Part shown: in pieces, positions 14,662 through 45,088 of the stretch | How positions within the stretch are numbered: position 1 is the first letter of the stretch | Layout of the letters: each line of letters opens with the position of its first letter | NCBI RefSeq assembly: GCF_046105845.1 | Contig: NZ_CP151004.1 | Length of the DNA: 64,000 nucleotides | Origin: Escherichia coli | Lineage (GTDB): Bacteria > Pseudomonadota > Gammaproteobacteria > Enterobacterales > Enterobacteriaceae | Reading direction: 5' to 3' (one strand) | Made by a program: the position numbers and the translations under genes | Notes under the pieces: generated by a model | The model's input: only the letters and a program-made list of their open reading frames with translations | Databases searched by the model: none | Told to the model about the DNA's origin: nothing

Positions 14662-16758
14662 TTAGCGGAAATTGACGCTACGGTCGCTGGTCATGTCATA
14701 CAACTGGAACTTACGCCCAAGTTGCTGACCACCGTCACGCGTCAGCGGCGTCCAGCCAATTGCCGCACGGCTGCGTGTCGGGCCAGACGAGAAGAGATCC
14801 AGCGGTACAGAGACATACACGCCTTTGGTAAAGTCCCCTTCGCCGTACTCCTCTTTCGAAACATTCGTGATCGTGGCATAGCCACCCACCACCACGCCGC
14901 TATCAAAGCGTTTGGCGATCTCCAGCGTGCCGCCTTTATCCCCTGCCAGATACTGCCCGACGCTCGCTTTCACTAACACATCCTGAGCGAAAGATGGCGT
15001 CCAGTATGCGGTCAGATGTCCGGTTTTCACGCTGTAGTCGGTGAATTTCATCATATCTTTTGCGCTACGCCAGTCGCGCTGTTTAACGTAGTTGGCATCC
15101 AGACCAAACGCCCAGTTGCTGTCCAGCGGGCGATACAACACTTCTGCCCCCGCACCGCCAAACATGGTTTCGAGATAACCACCGTAGACCTGACCGTAGA
15201 AGCCGTTGCCCAGATGCTGGAAGTAGTTGGCTTGCAGGTTATTCACATAGACATCGTTCTGCACATACTCGCGCACATGGGTACGAACGCGCGGTAAGTG
15301 CGAGTCCTGCGGCGGGTTGGTGTAGTTAAACTTGTCGTAGTTGTTGGCAAGATTTGCAAACAGGCTGCCGGTGGTGAGCAGATGGTCCGTCAGCCATACA
15401 TCCGCCGTTCCCATCACGCCCAGCTGATACATGTAAAAGTTTTCCGGGCCACCGACCGACTGGTTCAGCACCGGATCGATATGGAAATCAAAGCGTGATT
15501 TGTCGATATACCAGCCCTGCTCGGTGGACTGCGGAACCACTGGCTCGACGCGTTTTTGCGCCAGCGTCGTTTCGTGGCCCAACGGCTCTCCGCCGAGATG
15601 ATTTTTCAGGCTGGCGACATCGGTTTCCGTCGTCACCTGCGGCATGTTAAGGCGATTTTCCGTAATGCGGATCGTTTTGATCCCATCCGGCAGATCGTTC
15701 ATCACGATCCGATTAGCACGGATGATCCCTTCGCGCGAATCACGATATTTCACCTGCTCGCCGGTAACATACAGCGTATCGCCTTTCGCCTGGATCTGCG
15801 GATCGGCCAGTCCGGCGTTGTATTTCAACAGCGTTAACTGATTCGCCACCACCGAGTGCTGCAAAATGGCATCCTGCGGCTGCGGTTGATATTGCGGGCG
15901 GGCGTTATCGTTGTAAGACGGGCGCAGATCGTTAAAGTTGGTGCGCAACGTAACGCCAAACATAAAGGTGTTGCCACGTTCATAGCTAAGGTTAACGTCG
16001 GCCCAATCGGTAACGCGATAAATCGCACCGACGTTAAACTTACTTTTTTGCTCCAGCTTCCCGGCAAAATCCTGCTGATAATTATTGCCTTCATACTCCA
16101 GTTTCAGGCGCAGCGGTTGCCAGGGCGTCTGGTATTCCACGCCGCCAAACAGTGAGGTCGGGCCGTGGAACATCTGGCTACCGTCGATAGATCCCGCCTG
16201 TTTGTAGCTGTTATCGCGATAGCAAAATTTATCACTGGCTGAACAGAGCGGATTTTTCACATTACCGCTGGTGCCCAGATATCCCCAGCCCAGGCCGAGC
16301 GTAAAATCGAACGGCCCCCAGGCTTTGCTGGCAACAAGATATTCCGCATCAAACAGCCCCGTACCGCCGATATCCCGCGCACCAACCGCCACTTGCGGCA
16401 GCCAGTAACTCTCTTCCCACAAACGCAGTTTGAGATCGAAGGCTTTATCTTTATACGTTTGATCACCAGAGAACGCTTCGACGCTGCTGTACTGCCGGGT
16501 GCGCACATCGGTATAGCGCAGCGTTGTTTCCAGCCACGGGAAGAGTTGCACTGAAGCTGAGTAATAACGGTACTGATCGTTATCGCGATAGTTCAAACTC
16601 AACTCCCCTTCCCGCGCCATGCGGGCGGTAGGCGTTTGTAATAATCCTACGCCACCGAAATCCGACTGCGACGGACCAATGGGCGCAGGATATGTTTCGC
16701 CGTAGCAAGCTGTGCTAATGCCCAGCGCCAGTAAGCTAAGCAGATGTCTTTTTTTCAT
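14662..16758 (-). CDS. yjbH: Outer-membrane lipoprotein of the yjbEFGH exopolysaccharide-associated operon
   Basis: 698-aa ORF with signal/lipoprotein N-terminus [20 protein letters not shown]; last gene of the operon. Confidence 0.85.
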
Positions 16759-17495
16759 TATTGAGGTATCCGCTGCGTCAGAGTCTGAAGAATGTCGGCG
16801 TTAAGGGCATCAGGCGTCTCACTCCAGACGGAGTCCGCGAGGCCAACATAAATAATGCTGCCGGGCATCGGCTCTACGTGACGCTTGTTCCAGTAAGCCA
16901 CCGGCGCTTTTTGCGTGCGTCCGTCCGGGTAAACCACCCACGCGTAGCTGCGATCCGCACCGCTGAGCAGGTTCTGGCCGGAGAGATAGCTCGCCACGTC
17001 GCGACCTGGAGTGAATGGCTGCTTGCCAGGACGGCTGATAAGCCCGAACAACGTGACCGTGGACGGCGGTGGTCCGACCCACAGCGTGTAGTTACCCTGC
17101 AACGGCGGGTTACCGCGTTCGGCAACGCGGACGATATCGGGATCAAGATTGATTTTTTGCCTGCCCGTCACTTTCAACGCCTGAATTTGCTGGCGTAAGG
17201 CGTTAATCGCAGCGGCATCGTCGGCGCTGGAGTCTGCGGCCAGTTCTGCCAGCCGTGTCAGCAACGCCTGCTGCTGACGCAATGCTGCCGCCGTTGCCAG
17301 CTCTTCGCTAATCACCGCACCAGGCCACCAGCTGTTTGCCAGCCGCGGTTGGCCTACCAGATCGATTAAATGCTCTGCGCCCGTTAGCGTCTTGGCCTCA
17401 CTGCTGCCATTGCTGAACACCTTGACGGTTCCTGCTGCGAAGACCGATGACGCTCCCACACTCAAAAGCAACGCGACAATAGTTTGTTTAATCAT
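16758..17495 (-). CDS. yjbG: Periplasmic protein of the yjbEFGH operon
   Basis: Start at [20 protein letters not shown] (245 aa); 1-nt overlap with yjbH start. Confidence 0.8.
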
Positions 17496-18130
17496 TGTTT
17501 TGCCGCCTTGATGAGGGTGGTTTTCACCGGGAAATAATCCGCGCCGAGATACTGTTCCGACTGGCGAATTTGCCCTTCGCTGTCGATCCAATAGCGGTTA
17601 TGCCAGCGCGCCTGGTCGGTGGAGACGTTTTCGTCCAGCACGCGAACCGGAGTTTCATCGCTGCCGACTTTGACGGTATCGGTGCCATCCCATTTGAAGA
17701 CTGAGCGTGCGGTGGCGTAGCGTACCTGCTGGTACTCGGTCCAGCCCATCGTGCGCGTCCAGGTTGCACCATCAACAATTTGTGCGGGTTTAATCAGCGG
17801 GTCGGCGGCAAGGTTATTCACTTCAATCAGGTTGTCGCCGCCAAGCAAAGTCTTCACCAGACGACCATGTTGTGTGACGAGAGTGGCCTGATCCTGAGTG
17901 ACCCATTTTTGTTGTCCGTCTTCAGCGAAGGCCAGCACCACAAACAATTGCGGCCCGCCATTAAGCTGCATGTACTGGCTGGCGTAGGGCATATTTTGAA
18001 TATCATCGTCCGTCAGCTGTACGCCTGGCGTGCCGAACAGACTGTCCCACAGTGAATTGCCCAGCTCTTTAGTCGTGGCTGAACAGGCCTGTAATAGCAG
18101 GCAGATAAGAATGAGTGCAGGTCGCTTCAC
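17492..18130 (-). CDS. yjbF: Lipoprotein of the yjbEFGH operon
   Basis: Probable GTG start at VKRPALILICLLLQACS (lipobox LQAC), about 212 aa; 4-nt overlap with yjbG. Confidence 0.7.
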   Translation of the reverse strand: MKRPALILICLLLQACSATTKELGNSLWDSLFGTPGVQLTDDDIQNMPYASQYMQLNGGPQLFVVLAFAEDGQQKWVTQDQATLVTQHGRLVKTLLGGDNLIEVNNLAADPLIKPAQIVDGATWTRTMGWTEYQQVRYATARSVFKWDGTDTVKVGSDETPVRVLDENVSTDQARWHNRYWIDSEGQIRQSEQYLGADYFPVKTTLIKAAKQ

Positions 18131-18242
18131 GACTCTTCTCCAGAGGGGCAGAATAACCACACCGGAGTGTGGTTATGGTAAATCCCTTCATATTTCAAGC
18201 CACAGATGCAATGACCCGAATTATTTTGGGATACATACTTTA

Positions 18243-18485
18243 TTACTGGGTACTGGTGGTCGTGGTTGTTGTGGTCCCGGTATTAGAACCATCACCGCCA
18301 CCGGTTGCCGCGAGCGCGACACCCACCGCCGAGCTTACGGTGCTGACGCTGGTCGCGGAGGAACTCCCCGCCGAAACCGACGTTGCTGCCGACCCTGCCG
18401 CTTCGCCCACCTGTACAGGTGCAGCCCACGCAGAAGTCGCCGCAAGCGCAGATATGGCAAAAATGCCATACAGAACTTTTTTCAT
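18243..18485 (-). CDS. yjbE: Secreted low-complexity Ser/Thr/Gly/Ala-rich protein
   Basis: 80-aa ORF; signal peptide [21 protein letters not shown]; ends in [15 protein letters not shown]. Confidence 0.8.
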
Positions 18486-18793
18486 AACAATTTCCCTTCA
18501 TTGAATGAATGGAGATTTACCCAAAAACATTTCGGGCGGGATCGAGTATACACAACTAAAGCATGCGAATTACGGTGTGGGGAATTAGCGATGGGGTTTT
18601 AGGATAATTGGAATGAATATCAAATATAAGTTTCAACTTATATATAAATAAGATTAAAAATCAAAAAGTTAAAATAGAATCAAAAATAATCAACCTACGT
18701 ATTTTCCGAAATCAATCACGATTAAAAATTTATTTTAGGATTAAACTCACAGCATGATTTCCGTTAAATCACAGACAAGGGGATTTATCTGAT

Positions 18794-18827
18794 AAAAAAT
18801 GCCGACATAACGTCGGCATTTTTATTA
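18794..18827 (-). terminator. Terminator downstream of pgi
   Basis: Hairpin atgccgacataacgtcggcat flanked by A/T runs on both sides. Confidence 0.55.
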
Positions 18828-18838
18828 AGGTTATTTAA

Positions 18839-20488
18839 TTAACCGCGCCACGCTTTATAGCGGTTAATCAGACCATTGGTCGAGCTATCGTGGCTGCTGA
18901 TTTCTTTATCATCTTTCAGCTCTGGCAGAATACGGTTCGCCAGTTGTTTACCCAGCTCCACGCCCCACTGGTCGAAGGTGAAGATGTTCAGAATCACGCC
19001 CTGAGTAAAGATTTTGTGCTCATACAGCGCAATCAACGCACCCAGGCTGAACGGAGTGATTTCGCGCAGCAGGATGGAGTTGGTCGGACGGTTACCTTCG
19101 AACACTTTGAACGGCACCACGTAGTCAAGCGTTGCCGGATCTTTACCCTGATCACGATATTCCTGCTCAACCACTTCGCGGGATTTACCAAACGCCAGCG
19201 CTTCGGTCTGAGCAAAGAAGTTAGACAGCAGTTTCTGGTGATGATCAGAGAGTGGGTTATGGGTGATAGCCGGGGCGATGAAATCGCACGGTACCATTTT
19301 GGTTCCCTGGTGGATCAGCTGGTAGAACGCGTGCTGACCGTTTGTGCCTGGTTCACCCCAGATAATCGGGCCAGTCTGGTAATCCACAACGTTACCGTTA
19401 CGGTCAACATACTTACCGTTGGACTCCATATTGCCCTGCTGGAAGTACGCCGCGAAACGGTGCATATACTGGTCATACGGCAGAATCGCTTCAGTTTCCG
19501 CACCAAAGAAATTGTTGTACCAGATGCCAATCAGCGCCAGCAGGACAGGCAGGTTTTTCTCGGCAGGCGTGGTGGAGAAATGCTTGTCCATCGCGTGTGC
19601 GCCAGAAAGCAGTTCAACAAAATTATCAAAGCCGATGGAGAGAACAATCGACAAGCCAATCGCTGACCACAAAGAGTAACGGCCGCCAACCCAGTCCCAG
19701 AACTCGAACATGTTGGCAGTATCAATACCAAACTCGCCAACGGCTTTGGCATTGGTTGAGAGCGCCGCAAAGTGTTTTGCAACGTGTTTTTCATCACCTG
19801 CCGCTTTCAGGAACCAGTCACGCGCGCTATGGGCGTTGGTCATAGTTTCCTGAGTGGTGAAGGTTTTAGAGGCTACCAGGAACAGCGTGGTTTCCGGGTT
19901 TACTTTTTTCAGCACTTCCGCGATGTGAGTCCCATCGACGTTAGAAACAAAGTGCATGTTCAGGTGATTTTTGTACGGACGCAGTGCTTCGGTCACCATG
20001 TACGGGCCGAGGTCAGAACCACCGATCCCGATGTTCACTACGTCAGTGATTGCTTTGCCGGTATAACCCTTCCACTCACCGGAAATAATCGCTTCCGAGA
20101 AGGTTTTCATCTTCTCCAGCACCGCGTTGACTTCTGGCATTACGTCTTTGCCATCAACCAGAATCGGGGTATTGCTACGGTTACGCAGCGCTACGTGCAG
20201 CACGGCGCGGTTTTCAGTGCGGTTGATCTTCTCGCCAGAGAACATCGACTTAATCGCGCCCGCCAGATCGCACTCTTTCGCCAGATCCTGTAATTTCGCC
20301 AGCGTCTCTTCAGTGATGCGGTTTTTGGAGTAATCCACCAGCATCTGATCGTCGAAGGTTGCAGAGAACTTAGAAAAACGATCGCCGTCTTTAGCAAAAA
20401 GATCGGCGATCGTAACGTCTTTCATTTCATCGAAGTGTTTCTGTAGTGCCTGCCAGGCAGCGGTCTGCGTTGGATTGATGTTTTTCAT
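18839..20488 (-). CDS. pgi: Glucose-6-phosphate isomerase
   Basis: Start at [19 protein letters not shown] (549 aa); full-length match to Pgi. Confidence 0.95.
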
Positions 20489-20704
20489 TAGCAATACTCT
20501 TCTGATTTTGAGAATTGTGACTTTGGAAGATTGTAGCGCCAGTCACAGAAAAATGTGATGGTTTTAGTGCCGTTAGCGTAATGTTGAGTGTAAACCCTTA
20601 GCGCAGTGAAGCATTTATTAGCTGAACTACTGACCGCCAGGAGTGGATGAAAAATCCGCATGACCCCATCGTTGACAACCGCCCCGCTCACCCTTTATTT
20701 ATAA

Positions 20705-22410: not shown

Positions 22411-22614
22411 GTCATTATGCCCATAAATAAACGAGCCTGTACTCTGTTAACCAGCGTATTTATCGGAGAATAATTGCCTTTAATTTTTTTTCTGCATCTC
22501 TAATTAATTATCGAAAGAGATAAATAGTTAAGAGAAGGCAAAATGAATATTATCAGTTCTGCTCGCAAACGAATTCCCGTACACTGAACTCTCTGGCTCA
22601 CTGAGGGCACCATC

Positions 22615-22887
22615 ATGGCACTCCCCCGTATTACCCAAAAAGAGATGACTGAACGCGAGCAGCGTGAACTTAAAACACTGCTGGATCGGGCGCGGATTGC
22701 GCATGGTCGCGTACTGACCAACTCCGAAACCAACAGCATTAAGAAAGAGTACATCGATAAATTAATGGTCGAGCGTGAGGCTAAAGCGAAAAAAGCCCGC
22801 CAGTTAAAGAAAAAGCAGGCTTATAAACCGGATCCTGAAGCGTCATTTAGCTGGTCAGCAAATACGTCGACGCGCGGCAGGCGCTAA
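22615..22887 (+). CDS. yjbD: Small basic protein of unknown function
   Basis: 90-aa ORF MALPRITQKEMTEREQRELKTLLDRA...; position between lysC and rluF. Confidence 0.75.
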   Translation: MALPRITQKEMTEREQRELKTLLDRARIAHGRVLTNSETNSIKKEYIDKLMVEREAKAKKARQLKKKQAYKPDPEASFSWSANTSTRGRR

Positions 22888-37628: not shown

Positions 37629-37944
37629 CTTTTTCTGGCGGGCAGAGGCAATATTCTGCCCATCATACCTGAGTGGCAATAGAATAAGGGTGTCTGTTAA
37701 TCGCATTGACGCCAAAATAACTTAATGTCATACACTTCACACACTTTTATTAACTCAGTATTATTTTTAAACATCAAACCACTTAATTATTAACAAAATC
37801 GCAAGATCTCATTCCACCGAAACTTTTACGGCTGCATTATGAGATTGAGCGATTTATGATATTTCTTTAGTTGTAATCATATTAAATTTTTTCACTGTTC
37901 TGATAGTTAAAATTCAAGACATCAATAAACAATGAGATATTTAA

Positions 37945-41845
<3,901 letters not shown>

Positions 41846-44820: not shown

Positions 44821-44910
44821 CGTGCAGCTCCTCGTCATGGATCCGAAAACTTCCCCACTGTGAACGAAGGATCGTTGTGCGCTTTTCGTTCAGCACAACT
44901 AAGACTACTC

Positions 44911-44944
44911 ATTTAAAATGCAAAATCAAAAACAATTTCCATTT
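44911..44944. promoter_or_regulatory. IclR operator in the aceBAK promoter region
   Basis: atttaaaatgcaaaatcaaaaacaatttccattt matches the remembered IclR box. Confidence 0.5.
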
Positions 44945-45088
44945 TAATTAAAAATACTTGGTAACTTATTGATAACAATATGAATAAAATTTATTCACCT
45001 GCTGAGGTGCGTTTCGGAAATAAAAAAGGCACCCGAAGGTGCCTGAGGTAAGGTGCTGAATCGCTTAACGATCGACTATCACAGAAGA

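Follow-up and report, generated by a model that had tools for sequence, protein, structure and literature searches.

The DNA analyzed in this study, positions 18243–18838 of a 64-kb stretch of Escherichia coli DNA (hereafter the window), very probably represents the complete control region and the first gene of the known yjbEFGH operon. The minus-strand coding sequence at 18243–18485 (80 aa plus stop codon) is yjbE, and positions 18486–18838 constitute the entire pgi–yjbE intergenic region. The gene, the operon, and its control by Rcs and by stress have all been published before, and the finding itself is ordinary and already known; little in it is new, and the useful outcomes of the analysis are corrective.

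Gene Identity and Operon Context

The coding sequence is supported by the ORF itself, the RefSeq annotation, a Pfam match, and dN/dS. RefSeq assigns the name yjbE to this ORF in 5,425 of 5,426 complete E. coli genomes, and the product matches PF11106 (YjbE, exopolysaccharide production protein) with 113.6 bits against a gathering cut-off of 27.9, over residues 1–79 and a 79-position profile. The pgi gene ends at 18839, adjoining the spacer upstream of yjbE, and the three ORFs downstream of yjbE match PF11102, PF20616 plus PF06251, and PF06082, in agreement with the K-12 annotation. The locus has the makeup of a gfcABCD-type operon, with a small Thr-rich first gene followed on the same strand by genes for a YjbF/GfcB lipoprotein, a GfcC-family protein, and a YjbH/GfcD outer-membrane protein. 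The yjbEFGH operon of K-12 (b4026–b4029; Ferrieres et al., 2007, Microbiology 153:1070) occupies the same locus in the order pgi-yjbE-yjbF-yjbG-yjbH. The YjbE amino-acid sequence of K-12 is identical to that of this strain, with two synonymous differences in the gene and three differing positions in the promoter-proximal 150 bp, whereas a 146-bp REP-type insertion directly after pgi is present in K-12 and absent from this strain. An antisense ORF of 111 aa (18169–18504, plus strand) was rejected as a gene because substitutions among orthologs are overwhelmingly synonymous in the yjbE frame.

Activation of yjbEFGH by RcsA–RcsB and its induction by envelope and osmotic stress have been reported (PMC5461412, PMC3599342, PMC5651002), and Rcs and stress control is also backed by PMC12057083. 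Expression of yjbE changed by a log2 fold of 5.74 after colicin M treatment (PMC3599342), and in ribosome profiling at pH 4.4 its translation efficiency was one of those that fell most strongly (PMC10746267). The initial annotation, made from the sequence alone, had placed yjbE at the head of a stress-induced operon, a view that these published data bear out.

Predicted Promoter, 5′ UTR, and Downstream Stem-Loop

Conservation maps point to a −10 element, TATACT (18545–18550, minus strand), within the invariant block TTGTGTATACTCGA. This predicted −10 lies 60–65 nt before the yjbE ATG in the window, and GTATACT is found 64–67 nt before the ATG in all 67 orthologous spacers. Transcription would accordingly be expected to start near 18538, giving a 5′ UTR of approximately 53 nt. 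Because the −10 sits so close to the start codon, the greater part of the 353 bp probably lies outside the yjbE transcript, and the earlier description of this DNA as a leader of about 350 nt is not upheld. The leader could be longer if a second promoter lay farther upstream, and the database entry for the locus contains two promoters. The yjbE promoter has no recognizable −35, which suggests that it is activator-dependent. A generic sigma-70 promoter scan of the spacer returned no promoter on either strand and missed the pgi terminator too; an empty result is expected for an activator-dependent promoter, and such a scan is therefore uninformative here.

Two hairpins were predicted by folding of the putative 5′ UTR. 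The first (GCCCGAAA ugu UUUUGGGU; 18519–18537, minus strand) is located near the predicted mRNA 5′ end. In the alignment 93% of its cells are paired and all seven pairs vary via G–U intermediates (e.g., CG/UG/UA), which fits an RNA on the yjbE sense strand only. The second (UCCAUUCAUUCAAUGAAGGGA; 18493–18513, minus strand) holds the Shine-Dalgarno sequence AAGGGA (18493–18498) in its 3′ arm. Across 28 genera its stem is near-invariant and its loop variable, with 98.7% of cells paired and six of eight pairs that never vary; covariation is neutral on this hairpin because the stem is invariant. As a whole, the 75-nt leader is not more stable than shuffled sequences (z = −0.68). Together, the 5′ hairpin and the second, Shine-Dalgarno-sequestering hairpin of the approximately 53-nt leader may provide a handle for translational control.

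Just 3′ of yjbE, folding and conservation identify a further stem-loop with a U-rich tail (AUAACCACAC ucCG GUGUGGUUAU; 18153–18176, minus strand). All 72 of 72 loci have the arrangement AACCACAC-N4-GTGTGGTT, mostly with UUCG as the loop and AUUUUG or AUUUCG as the tail, and the spacer after yjbE folds with z = −3.46. It is possible that this element acts as an attenuator or stabilizer between yjbE and yjbF; through attenuation, the stem-loop and its U-tract may raise the level of yjbE RNA above that of yjbFGH RNA.

Putative RcsAB Operators and IHF Site

RcsAB boxes were searched for with a conservation map combined with matching at the core positions (T1, A3, G4, T10, C11, and A14) of the RcsAB box consensus TaAGaatatTCctA. 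A box-like 14-mer on the minus strand, Box A (TGAGTTTAATCCTA; 18736–18749), is centered at about −204 from the predicted start and agrees with the consensus at six of six core positions and at 10 of all 14. All 67 orthologous spacers carry its pattern TNAGNNNNNTCNNA at the homologous position, −249 to −277 from the ATG. The full consensus at ≤3 mismatches has no match in the spacer; Box A is missed at this threshold because only 10 of its 14 positions match. Box B (TACGTATTTTCCGA, or TCCGTATAATCCTA in most genera; 18696–18709, plus strand), an inverted RcsAB-box-like 14-mer recognized in the alignment, agrees at five of six core positions, and its T, C, and AAA are invariant or nearly so among 36 sequences. 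Closer to the promoter, centered at about −68 from the predicted start, lies a putative RcsB-type half-site (TTCCAATTATCCTAAAA; 18597–18613, minus strand). This half-site repeats 9 nt of the distal box core (TTTTAGGAT) exactly, at a distance of 136 bp, and its pattern TC[CT][TG]AAA is conserved across genera. The sequence TCCTAAAAT has been termed an RcsB half-site (bioRxiv 10.1101/2025.05.13.653802).

Between the distal operators and the promoter, the plus strand carries an exact match to the IHF consensus WATCAANNNNTTR (AATCAAAAAGTTA; 18659–18671), one of four exact matches in the 64 kb. The strict consensus is kept in only 17 of 67 orthologs, with one mismatch in K-12. The locus has been annotated with two RcsAB sites and one IHF site (PMC6238139, Appendix Fig. 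S1), to which Box A, Box B, and the IHF consensus may correspond. A dip in the ParB ChIP-seq signal at this locus persists without transcription and vanishes upon deletion of the locus (PMC6238139), which indicates that the region is occupied by protein in vivo.

Several RcsAB-dependent exopolysaccharide promoters (E. coli wza/cps, rcsA, and Erwinia ams) have the same 14-nt TaAGaatatTCctA-type operator well upstream of the start (Wehland and Bernhard, 2000). The wza/cps, rcsA, and ams promoters also share with yjbE a requirement for both RcsA and RcsB and joint induction with colanic acid genes. Unlike promoters of the wza/cps type, yjbE has two inverted putative boxes approximately 40 bp apart from center to center, a putative half-site at about −68, and a putative IHF site in between.

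The STnc430 Match in the Spacer

The plus strand at 18682–18830, divergent from yjbE, matches Rfam RF02053 (STnc430, a predicted enterobacterial sRNA) with 89.2 bits, well past the gathering score of 47, and lies in the same pgi/yjbE spacer and orientation as the Salmonella candidate. A real STnc430 sRNA gene would start at about 18682, use TAAAAT (18670–18675), a hexamer 7 nt before the model start, as a −10-like element, and end at about 18830 at a terminator shared with pgi. This terminator (AAAAATGCCGAC n5 GTCGGCATTTTT; 18795–18823) is a perfect 12-nt inverted repeat that is predicted to be bidirectional and intrinsic. It folds with −16.8 kcal/mol on the minus strand and −17.7 kcal/mol on the plus strand (z about −5.6), and compensatory changes are found in five of the six G–C-core pairs across 36 genera. 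Predicted function on both strands is in favor of an sRNA, as is the folding of the 149-nt stretch, which is better than that of shuffled sequences (z = −3.37), mostly owing to the terminator.

The remaining observations argue against such a gene. The family is a computational prediction, and its source paper offers no expression evidence in its table, where the STnc430 prediction is assigned to class V, has 0 cDNA reads in each of the two libraries, and is marked "np" for the Northern blot (Sittka 2008, Table S3). Because the match is to the syntenic Salmonella spacer, its score mainly reflects homology. The central helix of the model consists of Box A pairing with Box B, that is, of two RcsAB-like boxes, and shows no compensation. 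In the body helix 75.6% of cells are paired; variation in the arms breaks the pairing, which is lost at the two variable pairs in 13 and in 29 of the 36 sequences, respectively, and covariation across the 36 genera lends this helix no support. RNAalifold retained only the terminator and one 3-bp hairpin, and only the terminator covaries. The promoter scan, empty on both strands, likewise does not favor the sRNA. We therefore regard a real sRNA gene as very unlikely, and the match is probably better explained by inverted RcsAB-type operators together with the pgi terminator. This reinterpretation matters for sRNA annotation in enterobacterial genomes.

Composition, Periodicity, and Curvature of the AT-Rich Spacer

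The initial annotation had recognized long AT-rich DNA with tcaaaaa and ttaaaa tracts upstream of yjbE, and this was confirmed: the 353-bp spacer has a GC content of 30.6%, with 240 bp below 30%, and contains TCAAAAA twice (18661 and 18680) and TTAAAA three times (18654, 18669, and 18722). Its AT-richest core (18597–18696) has a GC content of 17%, the minimum for any 100 nt of the 64 kb. Composition is kept in this core although its sequence is poorly conserved, and each of the 67 orthologous spacers has a 100-bp GC minimum of 10–28%, centered at about −178 from the ATG.

The same DNA had also been described as A-tract-phased and curved; the calculations did not support the phasing and gave only a modest curvature. 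AA/TT periodicity at 10–11.5 bp is not above that of shuffled sequences in any of three sub-regions (651, 653, and 1,049 of 2,000 shuffles reach the observed value), and the A5 tracts are spaced by 6.5, 8, and 11.5 bp. With Bolshoy-Trifonov or AA-wedge models and parameters from the literature, predicted local curvature reaches a maximum of approximately 22 degrees per 30 bp, which corresponds to the 98.6th percentile and falls outside the 12 strongest peaks of the window, and the mean predicted curvature is 10.6 for the spacer vs. 8.7 for the window. Extreme AT-richness at yjbE does not amount to A-tract phasing or, by prediction, to strong curvature.

These results bear on a model in which the AT-rich DNA is curved by phased A-tracts and coated by H-NS (or StpA), silencing the operon until stress relieves it. 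AT-rich DNA is a general H-NS substrate, and the 240 bp with less than 30% GC, among them the most GC-poor 100 bp of the window, would fit this model, as would the retention of AT-rich composition in all 67 orthologous spacers and the combination of low basal expression with large induction of yjbE. In addition, the co-activator gene rcsA is a classic H-NS-silenced gene, as cited in PMC12057083, and the ParB ChIP dip reveals some protein at the locus without transcription. What yjbE shares with the H-NS-silenced curved promoters of proU, bgl, and rcsA is a stress-inducible promoter preceded by extremely AT-rich DNA, together with little basal expression. Unlike those promoters, yjbE lacks A-tract phasing, has only modest predicted curvature, and contains no high-affinity H-NS motif: the motif TCGATAAATT has no match at ≤2 mismatches in 18486–18838, vs. 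94 matches elsewhere in the window. The searchable literature yielded no paper that connects either yjbE or yjbF with H-NS binding or an hns phenotype, and the nucleoid protein annotated at the yjbE locus is IHF, not H-NS. Binding of a nucleoid protein, as proposed in the initial annotation, is consistent with the IHF site annotated together with two RcsAB sites and with the ParB dip, but the spacer lacks a canonical H-NS nucleation motif. Silencing by H-NS therefore appears rather doubtful to us.

Alternatively, the AT-rich core may have no function and be an unconstrained spacer that drifts toward AT by mutation bias between functional elements. Nowhere in the spacer is conservation between genera lower than in the core, and the same holds within E. 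coli, where 16% of positions in 18641–18760 differ from K-12 compared with a pS of 0.069 in the flanking genes, and where 92% of 5,420 genomes are only 80–95% identical to the core allele of the window. This strain carries a minority allele that, over 191 bp, differs from the common ones by approximately 10%. The poor conservation of the IHF consensus is also in line with drift. On the other hand, a GC minimum of 10–28% is well below the ordinary intergenic composition of E. coli, and its position is kept in 67 of 67 spacers; the spacing between the distal boxes and the promoter is fairly constant, as seen from the range of Box A positions; and one strand has five copies of ATCAA and the other has none, a bias reached in 2 of 5,000 shuffles. 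With a database IHF site and in vivo occupancy reported as well, we consider a functionless core improbable.

Taken together, these elements suggest a model in which envelope or osmotic stress would act through the Rcs phosphorelay to place RcsA–RcsB on the boxes. In the direction of yjbE, the order is the pgi terminator (18823–18795), Box A (18749–18736), Box B (18709–18696), an AT-rich stretch of approximately 100 bp, the half-site (18613–18597), and the −10 element (18550–18545). The AT-rich spacer would be flexible, bent by IHF rather than intrinsically curved, and may bring the distal complex to the promoter by looping.

Composition and Selection of YjbE

The product of yjbE had been characterized as an 80-aa secreted protein made mostly of Ser, Thr, Gly, and Ala, and this description stands. 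These four residues account for 69% of full-length YjbE and 76% of the predicted mature part, and a rule-based check (positively charged n-region, hydrophobic h-region, and small residues at −3 and −1) found a canonical Sec-type signal peptide with MKK, a hydrophobic core, and the cleavage motif SAWA/AP, which is kept in orthologs. The signal peptide would be encoded by 18423–18485 and the mature 59 aa by 18246–18422 (both minus strand). Ser and Thr alone make up 42% of mature YjbE, which has a single Pro and no Lys, Arg, His, or aromatic residues. Residues 71–77 form a run of seven Thr (T7) encoded by ACC ACA ACA ACC ACG ACC ACC (18255–18275, minus strand).

Despite this low complexity, the exact sequence of YjbE is strongly constrained, the T7-ST tail included. 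The protein is near-invariant across genera of the Enterobacteriaceae, with a length of 80–83 aa in all of them and a dN/dS of 0.01–0.09 at pS values of up to 0.59, which indicates very strong purifying selection on its mature part. The T7 run is fixed in all 51 unique, full-length 80-aa orthologous CDSs examined, and its columns hold one amino acid but three to four codons. Internal repetition is limited to the poly-Thr codon run, over which only a weak tandem-repeat array was detected (9 nt, 2.4 copies), and to ATSVS, which occurs twice. The term mucin-like, used in the initial annotation, is therefore apt for the Ser/Thr(/Pro)-rich composition, albeit with one Pro, but it does not describe an evolutionary class to which YjbE belongs, since the tandem repeats and the rapid evolution of length and sequence that mark this class are not found. 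An AlphaFold2 model built from a 25-sequence alignment carries no confidence, with a mean pLDDT of 46.5 and the mature part below 50, and a word-indexed homolog search returned near-identical YjbE and frameshifted fragments, and nothing else.

YjbE has a counterpart in GfcA (YmcD), encoded by the first gene of the group 4 capsule operon gfcABCDE-etp-etk, where it heads a paralogous four-gene block in which GfcB, GfcC, and GfcD correspond to YjbF, YjbG, and YjbH. Both proteins have a signal peptide ending in A-x-A/AP, a Thr/Gly/Ala-rich body, a G/A/V-rich hydrophobic stretch, and a GDG...TTT..ST(R/Q) C-terminus, an architecture common to YjbE, its distant homologs, and GfcA. They differ in that the hydrophobic segment of GfcA is transmembrane-like (Kyte-Doolittle 2.16, vs. 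1.24 in YjbE) and in that the longest Thr run of GfcA is N-terminal to this segment. A BLAST comparison of YjbE with GfcA was not significant (E = 65) and GfcA had no match to PF11106, so that common architecture and operon context are what would relate the two proteins.

Biological Implications

The conservation of the exact sequence of such a low-complexity protein argues for a specific molecular role. YjbE would be a small Sec-exported peptide that most likely works together with YjbF, YjbG, and YjbH, the proteins of outer-membrane export, when the Yjb exopolysaccharide is produced. For GfcA, it has been proposed in print that the protein accepts glycans or is a substrate for export, with glycosylation as speculation only (PMC8592465). 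We may extend this idea, which we nevertheless judge unlikely, to peptides of the YjbE/GfcA type in general: rather than being accessory, they would be the conserved substrate, made in large amounts, on which the YjbFGH/GfcBCD outer-membrane machine acts, and YjbE would be a small exported carrier whose invariant T7-ST tail serves as the attachment site for the Yjb exopolysaccharide or O-antigen capsule, or as a threading element. The idea is supported indirectly by the near-invariant low-complexity sequence, by the hairpin after yjbE that could raise stoichiometry, and by the Shine-Dalgarno-sequestering leader. If true, it would make YjbE a bacterial proteoglycan-like anchor. It is unusual for a low-complexity peptide such as YjbE to be conserved in its exact sequence, and the YjbE/GfcA family is a reasonable target for work on the anchoring or export of group 4-type polysaccharides.

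Locus and Operon

In the six-frame ORF list of this Escherichia coli window, pgi lies at 18839-20494 (18839-20488 from the annotated ATG), followed by an 80-codon ORF (yjbE, 18243-18485) and three downstream ORFs at 17492-18130, 16758-17495, and 14662-16758, all on the minus strand; the K-12 gene order is pgi-yjbE-yjbF-yjbG-yjbH. Pfam assigns YjbE to PF11106 (113.6 bits) and the downstream proteins to YjbF (PF11102), the N- and C-terminal domains of GfcC, and YjbH (PF06082), and NCBIfam contains no model for any of these four proteins. An 851-bp query across the region matched 5,425 of 5,426 complete E. coli genomes, with pgi, yjbE, and yjbF annotated. Annotation, ORFs, and Pfam matches thus indicate that 18243-18838 is exactly the yjbE CDS plus the entire pgi-yjbE intergenic region.

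The yjbEFGH operon has been published as having a part in the production of an exopolysaccharide other than colanic acid. It is activated by RcsA-RcsB (PMC5461412, PMC3599342, PMC5651002). Its published inducers are colicin M, inhibition of LolCDE, osmotic stress, and, in psp mutants, metal limitation; the effect of RpoS is negative. The stress-induced operon proposed in the initial annotation is therefore correct and already known.

Predicted Promoter and Operators of the pgi-yjbE Spacer

Eighty orthologous Enterobacteriaceae loci were retrieved by a YjbF search, and 66 pgi-yjbE spacers no longer than 520 bp were taken from them for comparison (67 with that of the window). Mapped onto the window, conservation peaks at five places. 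These are the terminator of pgi, the pair of blocks 18749-18732 and 18711-18698, a further block around TATCCTAAAAC (18607-18597), the sequence TTGTGTATACTCGA (18555-18542), which is invariant, and nearly all of the 60 nt preceding the yjbE ATG. GTATACT is present in all 67 spacers, 64-67 nt before the ATG. With no acceptable -35 for yjbE and no match in a generic sigma-70 scan, this block looks like the -10 of a predicted activator-dependent promoter. The implied start would be near 18538 with a leader of about 53 nt, which would make "leader" the wrong label for most of the 353-bp spacer.

Two of the conserved blocks contain RcsAB-box-like sequences. Box A (18749-18736, minus strand, that of yjbE) reads TGAGTTTAATCCTA and agrees with the RcsAB box TaAGaatatTCctA at all six strongly conserved positions, and its core pattern occupies the homologous position in 67/67 spacers. 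Box B (18696-18709, plus strand) is an inverted copy, TCCGTATAATCCTA in most genera. The 9-mer TTTTAGGAT of Box A is repeated exactly at 18597-18605, 136 bp apart; this copy, near the promoter at about -68, may represent a third half-site. An exact IHF consensus, AATCAAAAAGTTA (18659-18671), is located between the promoter and the distal boxes and is one of four exact matches in the window; just 17 of 67 orthologues retain the strict consensus, and the K-12 sequence is mismatched at one position. A dip in ParB ChIP-seq signal at this locus survives rifampicin and stationary phase and is gone after deletion of the locus (Debaugny et al., PMC6238139); Appendix Fig S1 of that paper annotates 2 RcsAB sites and 1 IHF site here.

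Eight comparison loci of the Citrobacter freundii-complex type (L005, L006, L008, L010, L015, L024, L030, and L032) have 12 nt deleted between the -10 and the proximal TCCTAAA half-site, approximately one helical turn, so the helix face is approximately preserved. In several genera (L016, L045, L047, L053, L059, and L063), about 2 kb is inserted between pgi and yjbE, and the yjbE-proximal control region is still there; in L045 the inserted DNA is an opposite-strand ORF of 485 aa (772-2229). K-12 (L001, 2409-2554) has a 146-bp insertion right behind the pgi stop, absent from the window (point 18838/18839), which consists of two REP-like palindromes and then a degenerate copy of the final ~20 nt of pgi (TAATACATAGCACGATTGAT vs TAAAGCGTGGCGCGGTTAAT). 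This insertion is polymorphic in E. coli, being present in K-12, O157 86-24, WP2-S18, and TO217 and absent from the window, B20105, RM10466, and E189.

AT-Rich Core

The spacer (18486-18838, 353 bp) has 30.6% GC, and 18597-18696, at 17%, is the minimum of all 100-nt values in the 64 kb. TCAAAAA occurs twice and TTAAAA three times, so the initial description of AT-rich upstream DNA with these tracts is right, as it is for the low-complexity composition of YjbE. Other stretches below 30% GC (100-nt windows) are 2637-3793, 11967-12153, 22437-22578, 37678-38843, and 44870-45034.

A reading of this DNA as curved, A-tract-phased, and bound by H-NS is unsupported. AA/TT power at 10-11.5 bp was equalled by 33%-52% of shuffles, and the four A5 tracts within 18656-18687 are separated by 6.5, 8, and 11.5 bp. 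Wedge models of the DNA trajectory (Bolshoy-Trifonov and AA-wedge, literature parameters) put the local curvature maximum at the 98.6th percentile, outside the twelve strongest peaks of the window, and the mean was near background.

No part of the spacer is less conserved than the core (roughly 18620-18700), both between genera and among E. coli strains. Within 18641-18760, 19 of 120 positions (16%) differ between the window and K-12, compared with a pS of 0.069 for five flanking genes, and over 18600-18790, 92% of 5,420 genomes are just 80-95% identical to the window allele. Core alleles of E. coli fall into several discrete haplotypes, of which that of the window is a minority (430 of 5,420 genomes at ≥95% identity). 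A 100-bp GC minimum of 10-28%, centred about 178 bp upstream of the ATG, is nevertheless found in 67/67 spacers; composition and position are retained, sequence is not. This pattern fits a bendable spacer for IHF-assisted contact of the distal operators with the promoter. Non-specific coating by H-NS, or drift, would fit as well. The spacer has no match to the H-NS high-affinity motif, and a literature search found no H-NS data for the pgi-yjbE locus. An exact H-NS motif, TCGATAAATT, occurs outside the spacer at 22754-22763.

The pentamer ATCAA, which is the "tcaaa" motif of the initial annotation and also the IHF core, occurs five times on the plus strand of 18600-18760 (18619, 18660, 18679, 18689, and 18711) and never on the minus strand, a count reached by just 2 of 5000 shuffles. 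The sequence ATATAAGTT-tc-AACTTATAT (18624-18643), located between the proximal half-site and the IHF consensus, forms an inverted repeat with perfect 9-bp arms; it is the same in K-12, changed in other E. coli haplotypes, and unconserved in other genera.

Rfam STnc430 Match

The plus strand at 18682-18830 matches RF02053 (STnc430, a predicted enterobacterial sRNA) at 89.2 bits, the gathering score being 47. Table S3 of Sittka 2008 places STnc430 in pgi/yjbE, opposite in orientation to both genes; it is classed there as a computational prediction (class V), has 0 cDNA reads, and is marked "np" under Northern. Its central helix is Box B paired with Box A. In a 36-genus alignment, the invariant positions of this helix pair trivially, and its two variable positions are unpaired in 13/36 and 29/36 sequences. 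RNAalifold retains just the terminator and one 3-bp hairpin. The pgi terminator covaries at 5 of 6 pairs and folds at -16.8 and -17.7 kcal/mol on the two strands. We therefore read the match as conserved DNA operators plus a bidirectional terminator, probably not an sRNA. A divergent transcript, spurious or real, may start from TAAAAT at 18670-18675.

Leader and yjbE-yjbF Spacer

The yjbE 5′ UTR folds as two hairpins on the minus strand. In hairpin 1 (18537-18519; 93% of cells paired, 28 genera), all seven pairs vary via G-U intermediates; one of them, for instance, occurs as CG, UG, and UA. This fits only an RNA structure of the yjbE sense strand, which would require a start upstream of 18537. 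The 3′ arm of hairpin 2 (18513-18493) includes the Shine-Dalgarno AAGGGA; its loop is variable and its stem almost invariant across 28 genera, and covariation cannot test a stem without variation. The stability of the entire 75-nt leader is not unusual (z = -0.68). In ribosome profiling, yjbE is among the strongest translation-efficiency decreases at pH 4.4 (PMC10746267). The profiling result hints at translational control of yjbE.

Downstream of yjbE, an invariant stem-loop, AACCACAC-N4-GTGTGGTT (18153-18176, minus strand), is present in 72/72 enterobacterial loci with a mostly UUCG loop and a U-rich tail; the window form is AUAACCACAC-ucCG-GUGUGGUUAU, again with a U-rich tail. Possible roles are attenuation of read-through into yjbFGH and stabilisation of a yjbE transcript. 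In one transcriptome study, up-regulation within the operon is strongest for yjbE (PMC12057083). IS1 insertions in the yjbE-yjbF spacer lead to colanic-acid overproduction (PMC8117528). This spacer is about 60 nt long in most genera and 107-118 nt in Escherichia, several Citrobacter, and some Enterobacter. In E. coli an additional hairpin precedes the conserved stem-loop, and other lineages have a GC-rich REP-like palindrome past it (loci noted for variation: window 18177-18242, minus strand, and L004, L005, L008, L034, and L038).

YjbE Protein and Family

Ser, Thr, Gly, and Ala make up 69% of complete YjbE and 76% of the predicted mature 59 residues, which lack basic and aromatic residues and end in a T7 run. 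For the mature part, a comparison of 51 unique 80-codon orthologues gave pS values up to 0.59, pN ≤0.10, and dN/dS of 0.01-0.09, and each of the seven Thr positions uses 3-4 codons for one amino acid. If anything, constraint on this mature low-complexity part exceeds that on the signal peptide, the opposite of mucin-like evolution. The "mucin-like" label of the initial annotation describes the composition of YjbE alone. This constraint and the ribosome-profiling record indicate that yjbE is translated. AlphaFold2 did not produce a confident model (mean pLDDT 46.5).

Only 37 proteins were recovered when 1.84 billion representatives were searched with a profile, and they share a signal peptide, a GxAAG motif, a Ser/Ala/Gly linker, a G/A/V/L hydrophobic segment, GGG(D/N)GS, and a poly-Thr tail, often R- or K-terminated. 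GfcA, the first product of the paralogous group 4 capsule operon, has the same architecture plan and operon position, although similarity is undetectable by BLAST (E = 65) or Pfam. The hydrophobic segment is transmembrane-like in GfcA and distant members (Kyte-Doolittle 1.9-2.5), whereas it reaches only 1.24 in the window YjbE, which may therefore be soluble, associated with the membrane, or passed on to YjbH. Glycosylation of GfcA has been put forward in print as a suggestion (PMC8592465). Many public YjbE entries (for example, database proteins P0027, P0035, P0040, and P0010) are frameshifted or truncated, shifting into an Arg-rich alternative frame; such entries are either sequencing or assembly errors in a GC-rich low-complexity CDS or pseudogenes.

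Overall, the locus is ordinary and has been described before. The only points with some mild novelty are the reinterpretation of STnc430, the conserved and structured leader together with the hairpin after yjbE, and the exceptional conservation of the low-complexity peptide.
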